Positions 55,345 through 62,920 of a stretch of DNA of 64,000 nt are shown one piece after another; the stretch's first letter is position 1, and every line of letters begins with the position of its first letter. The notes under the pieces were generated by a model that did no database searches, was not told the DNA's origin, and saw nothing but the letters and a program-made list of their open reading frames with translations. Source of the stretch: Candidatus Saccharimonadales bacterium (GTDB lineage: Bacteria > Patescibacteriota > Microgenomatia > Woykebacterales > RBG-16-39-9b); NCBI GenBank assembly GCA_035480955.1, contig DATIHF010000006.1, positions 11,110-75,109 on the forward strand. The letters are read 5' to 3'. A program made the translations under genes and the position numbers.

Positions 55345-56226
55345 TTAGAGCTTCGCCAATACTTTTTTCAGCTCATCGGGCAAATTTGAGGTAAATTTAA
55401 GTTTTTTCTTGCTCGTTGGCTGGACAAAGGCAAGCTCTCCAGCATGAAGAAATTGCCTGGAAAGAAGCATTTTTCCTCCGTAAAGTTTATCCCCGACTAT
55501 TGGATGTCCCAAATGGGAGAGATGGACTCGGATTTGGTGGGTCCGGCCAGTCTTCGGGGTTAGCTCAACTAGTGTAAAATTGGAAAAACGCTCGACGACC
55601 TTATAGTCGGTTACGGCTTCTTTGCCACTCTCACCTACAATAAATTTCTGCTTAAATTTAGGGTGTCTTTGTATACTTCCCTTTATTTCCCCTTTTTCCT
55701 TCTCCACTCTTCCGCCTACCAAGGCAAGATATTTTTTCTCGACAACCCTTTTTTTAAACTGCTCTTTCAGAGCTTCAAGTGAATCTTGATTCTTTGCAAC
55801 CACTAGCAAACCTGAAGTGTTTTTATCAAGACGGTGGACGATCCCTGGGCGGTTTGACTCTTGATCAAAAGAACCCAAATGAGAAAGCAGTGCGTTCACG
55901 ACTGTACCACTAGGATGGTCAAGTGTTGGGTGAGTCACGAGGCCGGCTGGTTTATCTATTACTAACAAATCTTTGTCTTCATAAACAAAGTCCAGTGGGA
56001 TATTTTCCGCTTTCAAAGAAACTTCTTTCTCGACTGGTATCTCAACGACTATTTTGTCACCCTTCCTGACTTTATAGGAAGGCTCTAAGGAAGCTTCATT
56101 AACTCGAATAAAGCCTTCCTTGATCAATTTATTGGCTTTGGAACGGGAAAGAACTTTGATTTGGGAGGAAACAAACTGGTCCAGACGATCCAATTTTGGT
56201 TTGACGGAAACTTTGAGAACTTGCAT
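55345..56226 (-). CDS. rluD: RluA-family 23S rRNA pseudouridine synthase with S4 domain (RluD-like)
   Basis: S4 N-terminus. HRLDKNTSGLLVVAKN catalytic motif. Confidence 0.8.
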   Translation of the reverse strand: MQVLKVSVKPKLDRLDQFVSSQIKVLSRSKANKLIKEGFIRVNEASLEPSYKVRKGDKIVVEIPVEKEVSLKAENIPLDFVYEDKDLLVIDKPAGLVTHPTLDHPSGTVVNALLSHLGSFDQESNRPGIVHRLDKNTSGLLVVAKNQDSLEALKEQFKKRVVEKKYLALVGGRVEKEKGEIKGSIQRHPKFKQKFIVGESGKEAVTDYKVVERFSNFTLVELTPKTGRTHQIRVHLSHLGHPIVGDKLYGGKMLLSRQFLHAGELAFVQPTSKKKLKFTSNLPDELKKVLAKL

Positions 56227-56624
56227 CAGCTGTTGCCGGCAGAGAGAGTACTTTTATTGAGGAACACTTTGACTTCAGAGAGGACTTGATCTGGATTCAT
56301 GGCGCTTTTTATGAGGTAGCCGCTTGCTCCTAAGGCAAAACCTTCTTTGATGATTGAATCTTGTCCTAAGTTGGTCAAGAGAACTACCGGCCCATTTTTT
56401 TGCTTGGGAGGTTTATTTTTCAGGTTACGCAAGATTTCCAAACCATCCATCTTGGGAAGCATAATATCCAGAAGAACTAGCTCGTAGCCTCCTTCAGTCA
56501 TTTTGTTGAGACCCTCTTCTCCATCAACTGCGAGTGAAACATCATAATTTTCCCCTTTGAGGAGCTCGTCATAAAGCTCTCGGAGAAATTCATCATCTTC
56601 AACTACTAAAATTCTCTGTGCCAT
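56226..56624 (-). CDS. stand-alone response-regulator receiver (CheY-like), paralog of 11061..11471
   Basis: ILVVEDD...LVLLDIMLPKMDGLEILRNLK...VLLTNLGQDSIIK. Confidence 0.8.
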   Translation of the reverse strand: MAQRILVVEDDEFLRELYDELLKGENYDVSLAVDGEEGLNKMTEGGYELVLLDIMLPKMDGLEILRNLKNKPPKQKNGPVVLLTNLGQDSIIKEGFALGASGYLIKSAMNPDQVLSEVKVFLNKSTLSAGNS

Positions 56625-56710
56625 AATTGTTTCAGAGCAATTATATCGAGCGCATACAATCTCATTATCTTATCTAAATTACCTTAAGCTCGATATAGAC
56701 TTTATATGTA

Positions 56711-57052
56711 TTATCCCCTTTTAACTTTCTTTTGACAAGACAAACACAGGCTCGCGGTGGGCATAATTTTCAGTCTTTCTTCCTCGATCTTGTCACCAGA
56801 GGACAAGCAAATACCATAAGTCCCCGCTTCGATTCGTTTTAGGGCTCTTTCCACGTCAATCAACTCTTTTTTGAGCTCTTCGGCGGTAGCGAAAATCCGA
56901 TCGTGCTCCTCGATCTCGGTAATTGTGTCATCCAAAACAGCGGTTTCACGGTCGGTCTTTGCGTAGGGATCTTCTTTTTTTAAATAGATGATCTGCTTGC
57001 TAAGTTTTTCTTTTTGTTCAACTAATATCTTTTCAAAAATCTCGGTATTCAT
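56711..57052 (-). CDS. DksA/TraR-family C4 zinc-finger protein
   Basis: Coiled-coil N-terminus. C-x2-C...C-x2-C (CLSSGDKI...CLSCQKK). Confidence 0.7.
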   Translation of the reverse strand: MNTEIFEKILVEQKEKLSKQIIYLKKEDPYAKTDRETAVLDDTITEIEEHDRIFATAEELKKELIDVERALKRIEAGTYGICLSSGDKIEEERLKIMPTASLCLSCQKKVKRG

Positions 57053-57869
57053 TGTTTCTCCTTTTGCGAAAACGTCCTAAACCAAAACCATATTTTCCTG
57101 CCTTGGCGCGATCCGCACTAAAGTCTCTAAATTGGTAAAAGTATAAAGAAAATCCCGCTAAAACTGCAAGCAAGAAGCTTGCGATATTTCCCAGTTTTAC
57201 GCCTAAAAGATAGGTCGAGTCTCCCCGGAAAAATTCAAAAATAAACCTTCCGACACTGCTCCAGAACAGAAAGTAAAGAAAAGTCTCCCCGGCTCTGTAA
57301 GTTGAAGGCTCTTTGAGTCGTTTTTTGTAAAAGCGGTAGAGAACTATAAAAAGAATTAGAGTAAAAAGAGCTTCATAAAGCTGTACTGGGTGTCTTTTCC
57401 CCTCCAGATTAACCAGGACGACTCCCCAGGGTAGTCGGGTCAGGCTACCATAATCATTGCCCGCCAGGAAACTTCCGATTTTAGCTAAAATTGTTGCGGC
57501 CATGATCGCGAGGGCTCCAATGTCGGCAATTGCCAAAATACTCCAGCGCCATCTCCGTAATAAAAATATACTCACCAAGGCAACCGCGATCGCACTCCCG
57601 TAAAAAGCAAAGCCGCCCTCCCAAAAATAAAGAATTGTGCGCAAATCAGAGGCAAAAAGATGGAAATTTATGATTGCGTAGTAAATCCTTCCGCCGATTA
57701 CCGCTGCAAGTAAATTGGCAATTGAGAAATCCATCAATTTTTCTTCTTGAAAACCTTGTTTTTTCCCTTCGCGCCAGATTATGTAAGTTGCCGCGGCAAA
57801 AGCTAGGGCAAGGAAGAAACCATAAGAATAGGCAGTAATTGGTCCGACTTTGAAAAGAATTGGATACAT
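57033..57869 (-). CDS. lgt: prolipoprotein diacylglyceryl transferase
   Basis: Lgt signature region, 7 TM, about 278 aa. Confidence 0.8.
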   Translation of the reverse strand: MYPILFKVGPITAYSYGFFLALAFAAATYIIWREGKKQGFQEEKLMDFSIANLLAAVIGGRIYYAIINFHLFASDLRTILYFWEGGFAFYGSAIAVALVSIFLLRRWRWSILAIADIGALAIMAATILAKIGSFLAGNDYGSLTRLPWGVVLVNLEGKRHPVQLYEALFTLILFIVLYRFYKKRLKEPSTYRAGETFLYFLFWSSVGRFIFEFFRGDSTYLLGVKLGNIASFLLAVLAGFSLYFYQFRDFSADRAKAGKYGFGLGRFRKRRNNEYRDF

Positions 57870-57899
57870 GACTAGTAATCTATTATAACAAGAAACCTT

Positions 57900-59120
57900 C
57901 TAGAAACTTTTGGCTCTTCTGGGTCTGAGACGGTAAATCCCAAAAGTAAAAACCACCAAACCAAGCGTCAAAAGCACACTTCTGACTCCAAACAAATCCC
58001 CGATTGCTCCAGAAAGCAGAACTGGTAGAGCGGCCACCCCACTGATAAATGTAGACAAGAGCCCATAAGCTCTCCCCCGCAAACCCTCGGGGGTATTTTT
58101 TTGGAAACTTGTCGTCACTGGGATTGTGACCAGGGCATTGCCGATCCCCAGAACAAAAATTAAAAACAAAGAAGTAATTTGTAAAACTCGCCCGACACTG
58201 CCCCGATCCAAAAATGCTAGTAGCAAAAAAGTCACTCCTAATCCTAGCAGTCCAGTGTTGATCAGACTTCTCTCGGTGAAACGCTCACCGAAATTACTAA
58301 GAAAAAACGAACCTACGACCATACCCACCACTGCCGGAGCTATGACGACTGCGGAAGCGTAACGCACGTCTAAATTTAGAATCTTATCGACATATCCTGG
58401 TCCAATTGTTGCTAAAATGAAAAAAATTGTCGTGGTCAGTGTCAGGAAAAATATTGAATCTCTGACTATTTTGTTTTTGAAAATAAAGATGATCCCTTCG
58501 AAAAAATTCTGCATCAGACTTGTGTGTGAAACTCTAGATTCTGACTGAATATTTTTCGGAAGTAGTAAATTTAAGACAAAAGAAAAAATAAATAAGAACA
58601 AAATCGCAAAGAGAGTGTAGTCTTCACCAACCAACTTTAAAGCAAATCCTCCTGCTAAAAACCCAATTATTAGAGAGAGCTGCAGAGTCAAAGAAAATAA
58701 GCTATTCGCCGAAATCAATTGTTTTTCTTCAACAATTGCGGGGATTGCGGAGCCTTCAGCGGGAACAAAAAAGGTAGTAGCAATAGCAAGTGCGACAACG
58801 GCGAGGAAAACAAAATAAGTTTGTCCTAGGAATAAAATCAAGAAAACTAGTACTACTGATCGGAGTAAATTAGTGAAAAGCAAAACCCTCTTGAGATTTA
58901 GCTGGTCAACATAAACTCCTGCTAAATAGCCAAAGATAATTGAAGGTAAGGTAAAGCAAAGAATTAAAATACTAACGGCAGTATTTTTCTTGGTAATTTC
59001 ATAAACTTTGAGGGTTAGAACAAAATAGAGTGCGTTTAGACCTATTTGTGAGGTAATTTGCGCAAACCAGAGGTATAGGAAATTTAAATTAGAAAAAACC
59101 TTGGGAAAGATTTTCTTAAT
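57900..59120 (-). CDS. MFS transporter (12-TM) with apparent ATT start codon
   Basis: The ORF-track TTG start at 58883 removes TM1-3. The in-frame upstream extension reads (ATT)KKIFPKVFSNLNFLYLWFAQITSQIGLNALYFVL... AAAGAGGAG sits 7 nt before the ATT at 59118-59120. The frame opens right after the pepA TAG stop, with no ATG/GTG/TTG upstream of 58883. Confidence 0.6.
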   Translation of the reverse strand: MKKIFPKVFSNLNFLYLWFAQITSQIGLNALYFVLTLKVYEITKKNTAVSILILCFTLPSIIFGYLAGVYVDQLNLKRVLLFTNLLRSVVLVFLILFLGQTYFVFLAVVALAIATTFFVPAEGSAIPAIVEEKQLISANSLFSLTLQLSLIIGFLAGGFALKLVGEDYTLFAILFLFIFSFVLNLLLPKNIQSESRVSHTSLMQNFFEGIIFIFKNKIVRDSIFFLTLTTTIFFILATIGPGYVDKILNLDVRYASAVVIAPAVVGMVVGSFFLSNFGERFTERSLINTGLLGLGVTFLLLAFLDRGSVGRVLQITSLFLIFVLGIGNALVTIPVTTSFQKNTPEGLRGRAYGLLSTFISGVAALPVLLSGAIGDLFGVRSVLLTLGLVVFTFGIYRLRPRRAKSF

Positions 59121-59147
59121 CGGTTGACTCCTCTTTAAATCAAATGA

Positions 59148-60572
59148 CTAAAGTTGGTCAATTAATTTTAGTAGAGTTTGGACCCCAACACCAGTAGGTC
59201 CTTTGGCGAGATAGGGTTTCTCACCTTCATTCCAGGCAGTGCCGGCAATATCAAGATGAGCCCAGGCGACTTTGTTATCGATAAATTCTTGCAAGAACAC
59301 TGCCCCCGCGATCACTCCTGCTCCTCTGCTGGGAGGAACATTGGCCAAATCGGCAACCTCGCTGCGTAAAAATTCTTTGTGTTCCGGGTAAAGGGGCAAT
59401 TGCCACATCCTTTCCCCCACTTCTTTACCGCTTTGGATCACTTGATCAATAAACTCTTGATTGTTTCCCAAAATTGCTGTGGCCTCATAACCAAGTGCAA
59501 CAATCGCCGCCCCAGTGAGAGTTGCCAGGTCAACGATCTTTTGCGCACCTTGTTTTTGGGCAAGCAGTAGCCCATCAGAGAGTACAACTCTGCCCTCAGC
59601 ATCGGTATTGATTACTTCAATGCTCTTACCGTTGCTTGCTTTGACAACATCACCAGGTTTGAGGGCGCCCCCGCCAGGAAGGTTTTCTGTAAGGGGGGTA
59701 ACTCCAACAACATTAATTTTGGGTTTTAAGATCCCAACAAGTTTCATGAAGCCAATTGTCGCGGCTGCACCGGCCATATCCATTTTCATATCGTGCATTT
59801 TTTCTGAAGGTTTTATTGAAATTCCCCCTGAATCAAAGGTGATTCCTTTACCCACTACTCCAAGAGTTGGAGCATCTTTGCCGTAAAGATACTTCAGGGA
59901 GACCATGTAGGAAGGTTCGTGACTTCCTTTGGCAATACCCAGAAAAGCCCCCATTCCCTCTCGAGCCGCCTGTTTTTCATCATAAACTTCGATTTTTAGT
60001 TTTTGTTCACGGGCGATCTTTTTCGCTTCCTCAACCAAATGAGATGGAGTCAAAAGATTGGCAGGTTGAGCAACTAAGGCTCTGACCCAGTTGGTTGTTT
60101 CTGCGGCACTCTGAGCTTTTTTAATTTCAGATGAGGAGAATTTCCCAATTATCATTAACTCTTCGAACTTTCCTGGCTTTTCTTTCCCGGTTTTGGCAAC
60201 TCCTGGATCAAATTCTCCCAAGACTACCCCTTCGATGATCAGACTTGGTTGAGAATAAATTTTTGCGTCAAATGCAATTTTTTTAACTTTATTTTTGAGT
60301 AAACGTCGCGCAGCGGCTCCGGCAACATTGCGCCCGATTCGCGCATCGAATTCACCTTTTTTACCAGCACCAACTAACAATATTTTCGGGGTTGAGGACC
60401 CAGCGGGAATGAGAAAAGTTTCGTAAAGTTTTCCACTAAAGTCGTTCTCTGTCAGATTTGCGGTAGTTTTGACGACATTTTGTAGAAAATTTTTATCTCC
60501 TTCAAAAATAGGGAAAACAAGGGCTTCGGTTTGAATTTCTTCAATTGGAGACTCTGTAGAGATAATCTTCAT
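59148..60572 (-). CDS. pepA: leucyl aminopeptidase (M17)
   Basis: NTDAEGRVVLSDGL signature and metal ligands. Confidence 0.9.
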   Translation of the reverse strand: MKIISTESPIEEIQTEALVFPIFEGDKNFLQNVVKTTANLTENDFSGKLYETFLIPAGSSTPKILLVGAGKKGEFDARIGRNVAGAAARRLLKNKVKKIAFDAKIYSQPSLIIEGVVLGEFDPGVAKTGKEKPGKFEELMIIGKFSSSEIKKAQSAAETTNWVRALVAQPANLLTPSHLVEEAKKIAREQKLKIEVYDEKQAAREGMGAFLGIAKGSHEPSYMVSLKYLYGKDAPTLGVVGKGITFDSGGISIKPSEKMHDMKMDMAGAAATIGFMKLVGILKPKINVVGVTPLTENLPGGGALKPGDVVKASNGKSIEVINTDAEGRVVLSDGLLLAQKQGAQKIVDLATLTGAAIVALGYEATAILGNNQEFIDQVIQSGKEVGERMWQLPLYPEHKEFLRSEVADLANVPPSRGAGVIAGAVFLQEFIDNKVAWAHLDIAGTAWNEGEKPYLAKGPTGVGVQTLLKLIDQL

Positions 60573-60688
60573 TGCAGGAGGAATTTTAACAAACTAATCC
60601 TTATTTGACAATCTTTTTTCTAAATTTTATTGCTTTTTTATTACAAATCTCTAAAGTAATTTTCGACTAAAAATTTTACTGTTAAGTC

Positions 60689-62920
60689 ATGGATTCTTAC
60701 TACTATTTATCTAGAAAATTAAATCGAGAAAAATTCTTTAAAAAAAGCAAATTTAATTTTAAATCTTTTGTGAAAATAGTTGGGATTTGTTTGATTTTTT
60801 TGGTCTTTCTTTCTGTAGTTACTTTGTCAATTTTTAGCACTGGTGTACTAGCAGAATATCAAAATTATTTTTCCGAACCTAAGATGCTCTCCTATAATGT
60901 GAACAATTTAACAATTTTTGATCGCAATGGAGATGTGCTTTACCGAACTCCAGGACGCTACAATACCCAACTAATCCCTTTGAAGGATATCTCCCCCAAT
61001 TTAGTTAAAGCAACTCTCGCAACTGAAGATAAAGATTTCTACAAACATAACGGTTTTTCCATAAAATCCATTGCCAGAGCCCTACTCACCGATGTCAAAA
61101 ATCAAGATCTCTATAAACAAGGTGGTTCAACTATCACCCAACAGCTTTCCCGAACTTTCTTTTTAAACAACGACAAATCTCTCGTCCGCAAAGTTAAAGA
61201 GCTGGTCTTGGCAACCGAGATTGAAAGAAGATATTCAAAGAACCAGATTTTGGATTTTTATTTAAACAATGTTTACTACGGCTCAGGAGCTTATGGGGCA
61301 CCGGAAGCTTCGAGAGTTTATTTCAACAAAGATGTCAAAGATCTCACCCTCTCAGAAAGCAGTCTCCTCGCAGCTCTCCCCTCTGCACCAACAGAGCTTT
61401 CCTTGATCAGTGGCGATAAGGAAAGGGCCTTTCAGAGACAGGCGTATATTTTAAATACCTTAGCTAAAAAAGGAGACTATTCTCCCAAAGAAATCGAAAC
61501 TGCTAAAGTAGAAAAACCGACTATCAATACAGCTGAACCAGTTTATGCTGACGCTCCTCATTTTTCGGTAATGGTCAAAAACCAACTGAAAGCCCTGTTT
61601 CCAAATATTGATATTAATAATTCTGGTTTGAGAGTTTACACAACGATTGATAAAAAACTCCAAAACAAAGCGGAAGATTTGGTAAAAGAAAGGGTCAAAG
61701 CCCTCGCTGGAAAAAATGTCACCAATGGTGCTTTTCTATCCACCAACCCCCAAACTGGTGAAATTTTGGCTCTGGTGGGTTCAGTTGATTTTTCTCAACC
61801 GCAATGGGGCAGCGTCAACGTCCTCACCTCTCCCCGCTCTCCTGGTAGTTCAATCAAGCCCTTGGTTTATGCTAGCGCGATCGACTCAAAAGCAATTGCA
61901 ACTACCACAGTTTTACACGACGAAAAGACTACTTACAAAAATGAGTGGGAGACCTACACTCCAGTGGACTCTGATGGAAAAACTAGAGGAATAGTATCTC
62001 CGCGGATTGCCCTTGCCAATTCCCTAAACATACCAGCGGTTGAAGTAATTTCGAAAAATGGCTTAGCCAGGACTCTACAGACTGTTAATCATCTGGGAGT
62101 CACTGGTTTGAAACAACCGACTGATTACGGTCTCTCTTTTGTCCTCGGTGGTGAAGAAGTCAAAGGCCTCGATATGGCTGCTAGCTACGCTGTTTTTGCC
62201 AACGGAGGCAACCTGATCAAACCTTGGGGTATCAAAGAAGTCAAAGATCGCTTTGGCAAAGAGCTCTGGTCACAAAAGGTTGAAAAAACCCAAGTCTTAA
62301 ATCCCCAAATTAGCTATATCATCACTAATATCCTTTCGGATAACAAAGCTAGAGAGTTACTTTTTGGCCCACATAATCCTTTGGATATCGGTCGAGCGGC
62401 GGCAGTAAAAACCGGCACTGGGGAAGATTTCAAAAATGCTTGGACGATCGGCTACACACCCAGCCTACTGGCTTTGGTTTGGGTGGGTAACAACGATGGC
62501 TCTCCAATGAAAGACATTTGGGGGTTAGAATCAGCGGCCTTAATTTGGAATCGTTTTATGACTTACTCTCTGTCGGGGACCAAAGTTGAGCAATTTGACC
62601 CACCCTCTGGTCTGCAACAGATTTCTGTCTGTGCACTAGACGGGAGCAAGGCGGTTTCTGGACAACCCACTTTGAAAGAAATATCACTTTCTGGGGAAGA
62701 ACCGACTGACTACGGAAAGTGTGGATTTATGAAAATGCAACAAGATGAACAAATCGCCAAAGCCGAGGCCGAAAAACAACAGCAACTCTTGCAATTACAG
62801 GAAAACCAACCGTCAGAACCTTTACCTCCAGATCAAAATAGCCCAGGGACCGGTAACAGCTTACCTTCAGACGGTCAGGATAGTGGTCCAGGAGTGGGTA
62901 CAGATAAACCTAAACAATGA
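60689..62920 (+). CDS. class A penicillin-binding protein (bifunctional glycosyltransferase/transpeptidase, PBP1A-type)
   Basis: GT51 motifs EDKDFYKHNGFS and GGSTITQQL. Transpeptidase SSIKP (SxxK) and KTGTGED (KTG). N-terminal TM. Confidence 0.9.
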   Translation: MDSYYYLSRKLNREKFFKKSKFNFKSFVKIVGICLIFLVFLSVVTLSIFSTGVLAEYQNYFSEPKMLSYNVNNLTIFDRNGDVLYRTPGRYNTQLIPLKDISPNLVKATLATEDKDFYKHNGFSIKSIARALLTDVKNQDLYKQGGSTITQQLSRTFFLNNDKSLVRKVKELVLATEIERRYSKNQILDFYLNNVYYGSGAYGAPEASRVYFNKDVKDLTLSESSLLAALPSAPTELSLISGDKERAFQRQAYILNTLAKKGDYSPKEIETAKVEKPTINTAEPVYADAPHFSVMVKNQLKALFPNIDINNSGLRVYTTIDKKLQNKAEDLVKERVKALAGKNVTNGAFLSTNPQTGEILALVGSVDFSQPQWGSVNVLTSPRSPGSSIKPLVYASAIDSKAIATTTVLHDEKTTYKNEWETYTPVDSDGKTRGIVSPRIALANSLNIPAVEVISKNGLARTLQTVNHLGVTGLKQPTDYGLSFVLGGEEVKGLDMAASYAVFANGGNLIKPWGIKEVKDRFGKELWSQKVEKTQVLNPQISYIITNILSDNKARELLFGPHNPLDIGRAAAVKTGTGEDFKNAWTIGYTPSLLALVWVGNNDGSPMKDIWGLESAALIWNRFMTYSLSGTKVEQFDPPSGLQQISVCALDGSKAVSGQPTLKEISLSGEEPTDYGKCGFMKMQQDEQIAKAEAEKQQQLLQLQENQPSEPLPPDQNSPGTGNSLPSDGQDSGPGVGTDKPKQ

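Follow-up and report, generated by a model that had tools for sequence, protein, structure and literature searches.

The infC gene of Escherichia coli starts with an AUU codon that lies a few nucleotides past the stop codon of the preceding cistron, and initiation factor 3 (IF3) discriminates against this codon. AUU is also the start codon of E. coli pcnB, where the inefficient start reportedly limits expression and holds down the amount of a potentially harmful protein (Binns & Masters 2002, as cited in PMC13009471). Conservation of a non-canonical start is a rarity, and the documented cases amount to a handful, namely infC, pcnB, ccpN and cvfC1. The ccpN genes of Staphylococcus aureus and Bacillus subtilis (AUA), S. 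aureus cvfC1 (AUU) and infC (AUA) combine such a conserved start with an extended Shine-Dalgarno (SD) sequence; output from the AUU or AUA starts of S. aureus cvfC1, ccpN and citZ, all provided with extended SDs, is about 10% of that from AUG (PMC13009471). In E. coli reporters, AUU output is six to eight times below that of AUG or GUG (PMC3592434). The weaker GUG and UUG starts tend to have stronger or better-conserved SDs, and switches from AUG to AUU were found at a frequency of 1 in 61,358 in a survey (Belinky, Rogozin & Koonin 2017, PMC5622118). Here we describe a transporter gene of the major facilitator superfamily (MFS) in a 64,000-nucleotide stretch of contig DATIHF010000006.1 from a Candidatus Saccharimonadales bacterium (the whole stretch is referred to below as the window). 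On comparative evidence, this gene is very probably translated from an AUU codon situated immediately downstream of the pepA gene.

The MFS frame is the same as the pepA frame. It opens directly after the TAG codon that terminates pepA and remains open for 406 codons (coordinates in Table 1). Read along the minus strand, the pepA stop is followed by TCATTTGATTT, by the SD AAAGAGGAG, by the spacer TCAACCG and by ATT, after which the sequence continues AAG AAA ATC TTT CCC AAG. The earliest in-frame ATG, GTG or TTG past the pepA stop is a TTG at codon 80, counting from the ATT, and no SD is present upstream of it. A first-pass annotation of this DNA, made from the letters alone, had described an SD-preceded ATT after the pepA stop and the lack of any ATG, GTG or TTG before position 58883; all of these sequence statements are correct.

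A total of 172 loci were mapped to the window protein by tblastn and anchored on a conserved Trp (residue 18). The window ATT lies exactly 17 codons upstream of this Trp. Among 118 distinct distant homologues (at most 41% identity; Gottesmanbacteria, Levybacteria, Woykebacteria, other Patescibacteria and some Chloroflexi), all starting with canonical codons (92 ATG, 19 GTG and 7 TTG), the start most commonly falls 16-18 codons ahead of the Trp, and very frequently at exactly 17. The ATT, from which the frame reads IKKIFPKV, also aligns with the Met-1 ATG codons of two closer relatives, loci L164 (MKRFFPSV) and L165 (MRKIIPSIM).

The closer relatives form a clade of 17 distinct orthologues with 49-71% protein identity, nearly all located directly downstream of pepA. 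Seven of the close orthologous loci came from scans of GTDB representatives and JGI metagenomes and the others from 12 exact-protein look-ups; the reading of starts at the DNA level leaves out proteins P0008, P0010 and P0018 and the remaining short-annotated proteins. At the orthologous start position, 13 of the 17 clade members, window included, carry AUU, AUC or AUA (collectively AUH). The codon is ATT in seven (window, L167, L001, L168, L166, L172 and L084), ATC in five (L163, L002, which is identical to L081, L082, L003 and L083) and ATA in one (L170). L163, L002, L082, L003, L083 and L084 resemble the window in having no ATG, GTG or TTG ahead of the conserved Trp. In L163 the frame opens just three codons (GGA GGG TTT) ahead of the ATC, so that no alternative start codon is possible there. 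The AUH start has been kept even though synonymous sites are saturated and the proteins have diverged to about 50% identity.

All 13 AUH starts are preceded by an SD, that is, a 5-8-nt match to TAAGGAGGT located 4-10 nt upstream. Examples, written as SD, spacing and start, are TAAGGAGG-4-ATC, AAGGAGGT-4-ATT, AAGGAGG-5-ATT and, in the window, AGGAG-7-ATT. No SD precedes the start in any of the three clade members with a canonical codon (L164 and L165, ATG; L171, GTG), and among the distant homologues an SD of at least 5 nt precedes the canonical start in only 3 of 118. The difference between 13/13 and 3/118 gives a Fisher p of about 2e-15, a value that ignores shared ancestry and is overstated. 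A rough neighbour-joining tree suggests that AUH was the original state of the clade. Four or more exchanges of the third base among T, C and A separate sister lineages, while G arises once, on the L164/L165 branch, coincident with loss of the SD; in L171, the start now lies three codons further downstream, at a GTG that likewise has no SD. Across these sequences the weak codon and the strong SD behave as a maintained pair, and the family offers an unusually clear natural example in which start-codon strength is traded against the strength of the ribosome-binding site (AUH with SD versus AUG or GUG without). In the window at large, many genes have no SD while a perfect AAGGAGG precedes others; judging from this distribution, the use of SDs in these genomes seems to depend strongly on the gene.

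Three lines of evidence indicate that codons 2-79 are translated, constrained sequence and not a decaying remnant: they complete the family profile, they are modelled as transmembrane (TM) helices and they show a low ratio of nonsynonymous to synonymous differences (pN/pS). When translated from the ATT, the protein aligns with positions 1-344 of the 347 positions of Pfam MFS_1 (PF07690; E 2.9e-43, 148.6 bits against a curated cut-off of 33.4); when translated from the TTG, the alignment is confined to positions 65-344. TIGR00900 (DHA3 H+ antiporters, TC 2.A.1.21), the best NCBIfam match, can be aligned from end to end (positions 1-364) with MFS residues 14-378. Its score of 159 bits is below the cut-off of 319.6, and the transporter is accordingly termed DHA3-like here, assignment to the DHA3 subfamily not being supported. 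An AlphaFold2 model built from 43 input sequences has a mean predicted local distance difference test score (pLDDT) of 93.1, a predicted template modelling score (pTM) of 0.90 and twelve long helices. TM1 spans residues 12-43, TM2 residues 46-71 and TM3 residues 76-96, with pLDDT near 97 over residues 11-80; a short helical loop (194-215) separates the two six-helix halves. According to this model, a protein starting at codon 80 would lose TM1 and TM2 and be cut within TM3. Comparison of codons 2-79 with four orthologues gave pN values of 0.10-0.19 and pS values of 0.83-0.94 (saturated), with pN/pS of 0.11-0.23. A sequence search for relatives of solved structure returned none at E <= 0.01.

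The AUH start is a feature of this one gene. The window contains 73 open reading frames (ORFs) with 100 codons or more, and the MFS gene is the sole real gene among them with a long leader devoid of start codons. In the remaining ORFs the frame opens no more than a few codons ahead of a canonical start, apart from a few with long leaders; these are either ORFs without a family match or genes whose Pfam domain begins at their own ATG, namely those for HPF (domain from residue 53, ATG at codon index 50) and YebC (domain from residue 26, ATG at codon index 21). The sequences of all loci, with about 1000 ORFs 200 codons or longer, were also scanned for an SD-preceded AUH that lies 15 or more codons ahead of the earliest canonical start. 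Nineteen matches were obtained, 12 of which are this MFS gene; the others resemble antisense or high-GC noise. A lineage-wide use of AUH starts was considered and rejected, as no other window gene qualifies and the scan of about 1000 ORFs found almost only this gene. The pepA, lgt, dksA/traR and response regulator genes are called at normal length in all orthologous loci. Taken by comparison, then, the AUH start is defined by its position, its conservation, its link to an SD and its restriction to a single gene.

How the window gene relates to the documented cases can be specified. With pcnB it shares a non-canonical AUU start; the potential harm of too much protein is described for pcnB. Like E. 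coli infC, it has an AUU, a codon disfavoured by IF3, close behind the stop of the cistron ahead. The infC gene encodes IF3 itself, which creates a feedback loop, while the product here is an MFS transporter, neither IF3 nor a protein acting on start discrimination; having no known link to initiation, it would be at most a passive reporter of IF3. In common with ccpN, cvfC1 and infC, the gene has an AUH codon conserved in relatives and a strong SD at proper spacing, and is otherwise ordinary. It differs from ccpN and cvfC1 in encoding a membrane transporter, in occupying the second position of an operon and in belonging to an uncultivated, Patescibacteria-like lineage; moreover, the ccpN and cvfC1 starts were demonstrated by retapamulin ribosome profiling and reporters, the MFS start by comparison. 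The absence of an SD from the AUG- and GUG-starting orthologues of the MFS clade has no described counterpart in the S. aureus cases (PMC13009471). Likewise, the compensation reported for GUG and UUG starts (PMC5622118) differs from the association in the MFS family, which concerns AUH and is all-or-none. A literature search found no earlier report of non-canonical starts in Patescibacteria (the candidate phyla radiation) or in an MFS transporter. Since initiation at AUU, AUA and AUC is already established from infC, pcnB, ccpN and cvfC1, the MFS case adds a gene and not a new mechanism.

Other explanations of the ATT must be weighed against initiation at this codon. The first-pass annotation had itself allowed for a sequencing error that turned ATG into ATT, and a single-base change (the T at 59118) in a metagenome-type assembly would suffice. 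This is extremely improbable, as two Logan assemblies from different runs (SRR9179559 and SRR9179561) contain the same organism and carry an identical 120-nt stretch spanning the pepA stop, the SD and the ATT, and the 12 other orthologues with ATT, ATC or ATA at the same codon come from unrelated samples; ATG occurs in only 2 of the 17, both without an SD. Very unlikely too, although not to the same degree, is a start at the TTG or at another downstream codon, the upstream frame then being an untranslated remnant or the gene a pseudogene deprived of its start. In its favour, gene callers give a 327-aa product (P0001) for the window gene and many orthologues are also annotated N-terminally short. 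These short annotations begin at scattered, non-homologous positions, however, as caller artefacts would. No SD stands ahead of the TTG, and codons 2-79 are under strong purifying selection, provide the first two helices and part of the third in a confident 12-helix model and complete the Pfam and TIGR profiles. The orthologues neither start at the downstream TTG nor lack the N-terminal helices. The view, already expressed in the first-pass annotation, that about 80 additional residues look like genuine MFS TM1-3 holds for the 79 codons, which in the model cover TM1, TM2 and part of TM3.

One could also imagine the transporter as a continuation of pepA through TAG read-through or a frameshift, given that in the window the two genes share a frame with a single TAG between them. 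Hardly any credence can be given to this idea: the pepA stop is in a frame other than that of the MFS gene in L163, L001, L166, L002 and L084, additional in-frame stops occur in some orthologues (a TAA three codons before the ATC in L163, and similarly in L167), and the nine codons from the TAG to the ATT are not conserved as protein. Initiation at AUU behind an SD, as first proposed in the early annotation, is what the alignment with Met-1, the spacing to the Trp and the 12 other orthologues with AUH and SD favour. Certain points weigh against it nonetheless. The case is built from comparison, in an uncultivated organism. Locus L169 is ambiguous: a weak TAAGG stands 10 nt from a TTG, and the ATT that follows five codons later has no clear SD. 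The Fisher tests treat kin as independent, and there are about two independent reversions to a canonical start. The anti-SD sequence was deduced only from AAGGAGG motifs before other genes, the 64-kb window containing no 16S gene. As to the observation itself, the absence of ATG, GTG and TTG from codons 2-79 (0/78) is only mildly unusual: in 19 close loci, these codons make up 4.0% of in-frame codons in the first 78 positions versus 7.5% in the rest of the gene. A purging of start-type codons that would protect the weak start was considered and rejected; the depletion is identical in AUH-start and canonical-start genes and is thus a property of the N-terminal sequence and not of the start type.

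With initiation at AUU, the 30S subunit would be positioned by the strong SD (AAAGAGGAG) 7 nt upstream and the initiator tRNA would pair with the AUU except for a mismatched third base; a normal transporter of 406 residues and 12 helices would result. The SD would secure selection of the site and the AUH codon would keep the rate of initiation low. Known AUH starts of E. coli and S. aureus reach about one tenth of the AUG rate. The net rate might then be comparable to that of the ancestral arrangement (AUG without an SD). On this view, pairing AUG with a strong SD would yield too much, and an AUH codon lacking an SD would be inactive. Sensitivity to IF3 would presumably be another property in common with other AUH starts. 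The suggestion of the first-pass annotation that the AUU might couple MFS expression to translation status, by way of IF3, is purely conjectural. Ribosomes that have just completed pepA may supply part of the initiation because the site is only 27 nt past the pepA stop. Throttling, coupling to pepA and sensitivity to IF3 are, it must be said, borrowed by analogy from E. coli and S. aureus, and this too counts against the reading in its full form.

A variant of AUU initiation would have the gene translated mainly by re-initiation, the SD holding ribosomes that have terminated on pepA and de novo initiation being negligible. In every orthologue with a locatable stop, no more than 9-35 nt separate the end of pepA from the AUH codon (27 nt in the window); these short distances are consistent with such an arrangement, as is the absence of a promoter-like or terminator-like site between pepA and the MFS gene in the 27-nt spacer. 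In E. coli reporters, re-initiation and de novo initiation contribute about equally to a second cistron that closely follows an upstream stop, an infC-type AUU junction included (PMC3592434). Linkage to pepA predates the AUH start, however, since L004 (41% identity) is pepA-linked and starts with ATG without an SD, and the ATG- and GTG-starting clade members have similarly short gaps without an SD. Moreover, IF3, a factor that disfavours non-canonical codons, still takes part in accurate re-initiation in E. coli (PMC2268962). The variant is possible, but we consider it unlikely to be the principal route.

Rather doubtful, and a little more so than predominant re-initiation, is the further idea that the AUH start and its SD have long been maintained as a regulatory device, tying synthesis of the transporter to IF3 activity or ribosome availability, to translation of pepA, or to both, in a lineage where conventional regulators are very scarce. 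Selection against AUG in the presence of an SD would explain why the third base varies among U, C and A and why G appears only upon SD loss. If the idea were true and general, conserved AUH starts would constitute an overlooked layer of gene control, as well as a systematic annotation error, in Patescibacteria. A conserved RNA structure at the start was also considered and rejected, as RNAalifold gave no consensus pairs for the 13 orthologues; the 120-nt window fold has a z of -1.3. In single-sequence folds, the SD often pairs with a downstream UUCCC or CUUCC belonging to the conserved Phe-Pro codons (5-6), with the start codon inside a small hairpin. This pairing is seen at 59090-59136 in the window and in the same region of L163, L167, L001, L003, L083 and L084, and may simply reflect complementarity of the SD to a pyrimidine-rich coding motif.

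Start assignment has direct consequences for annotation. Public calls (NCBI, Logan, JGI and ENA) are N-terminally short in about half of the clade (P0001, P0002, P0005, P0006, P0011, P0012, P0014, P0016, P0017, P0019-P0022, P0024, P0026, P0028 and P0030). At least three more proteins that seem full-length (P0004, P0009 and P0015) are called from a TTG 3-4 codons downstream of the AUH; this TTG is 14-20 nt from the SD, versus 5-8 nt for the AUH. As judged from the sequences, the short calls are a systematic artefact of gene callers seeking the next ATG, GTG or TTG. In the annotated window protein and in 16 or more of the roughly 30 clade orthologues, either TM1-TM2 are missing or the start is a misplaced TTG. 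By ignoring ATT, ATC and ATA at this site, gene finders deliver a broken protein to anyone modelling or counting transporters in these genomes.

Table 1. Features of the pepA-MFS-lgt region, in window coordinates.
Feature	Position	Strand	Basis or remark
pepA (leucyl aminopeptidase, Peptidase_M17; 474 aa)	59148..60572	minus	ORF list; Pfam labels of identical locus L161
pepA stop codon TAG	59150-59148	minus	follows C-terminus ...LLKLIDQL
Intercistronic spacer, 27 nt, pepA stop to MFS start	59121..59147	minus	contains the SD
SD AAAGAGGAG, core AGGAG, 7 nt upstream of ATT	59128..59136	minus	
Spacer TCAACCG (7 nt) between SD and ATT	59127-59121	minus	
ATT, proposed MFS initiation codon	59118..59120	minus	ortholog alignment, family start position, other assemblies
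Codons 2-79, N-terminal part of transporter (TM1, TM2, start of TM3)	58884..59117	minus	omitted by public gene calls; VFSNLNFLYLWFAQITSQIGLNALYFVLTLK is an example peptide stretch inside residues 1-79
TTG used as start by gene callers (327-aa product, P0001)	58881..58883	minus	inside modelled TM3
Full MFS transporter coding sequence, DHA3-like, 406 codons plus TAG (57902-57900)	57900..59120	minus	Pfam MFS_1 and MFS_3
lgt (prolipoprotein diacylglyceryl transferase), downstream cistron	57033..57869	minus	

The MFS gene belongs to a conserved gene row, pepA - MFS - lgt - dksA/traR - response regulator - pseudouridine synthase, and the C-terminal motif of the window pepA is also found at the end of the orthologous pepA genes. 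The row, which lies within 55345-62920 in the window and in which dksA/traR is of the zinc finger type, was also observed in L161, L163, L164, L168, L169, L171 and L172. The transporter is weakly similar to LplT and to Aas-LplT fusions (NCBIfam). The constant pairing of a DHA3/LplT-like transporter with lgt, together with the similarity to LplT, hints at a lipid- or lipoprotein-related substrate.

Upstream of the row, a class A penicillin-binding protein gene is divergently transcribed in both the window and L163. A promoter-like site (TTGTCA-17 nt-TAAAAT, with a TG; a consensus match alone) is found within 60572-60611 on the minus strand and ends 10 nt before the pepA ATG. The bases between this site and the ATG read TCCTCC, which resembles an anti-SD and not an SD; pepA may, to judge from this arrangement, be translated from a nearly leaderless mRNA. 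Several loci with this gene row (L001, L009, L018 and others; L002) stand in records titled 'uncultured Gammaproteobacteria bacterium' or 'Candidatus Nanoarchaeia archaeon'. On a gene row of the Patescibacteria type, such titles are probably mislabelled taxonomies of metagenome-assembled genomes. Protein P0027 (locus L173; 48% identity) falls outside the AUH pattern, being unlinked to pepA and starting with ATG without an SD. In this locus, which holds the nearest homologue beyond the AUH clade, coupling takes another form: the ATG overlaps (TAATG, positions 1498-1503) the stop codon of an unknown 318-aa gene.

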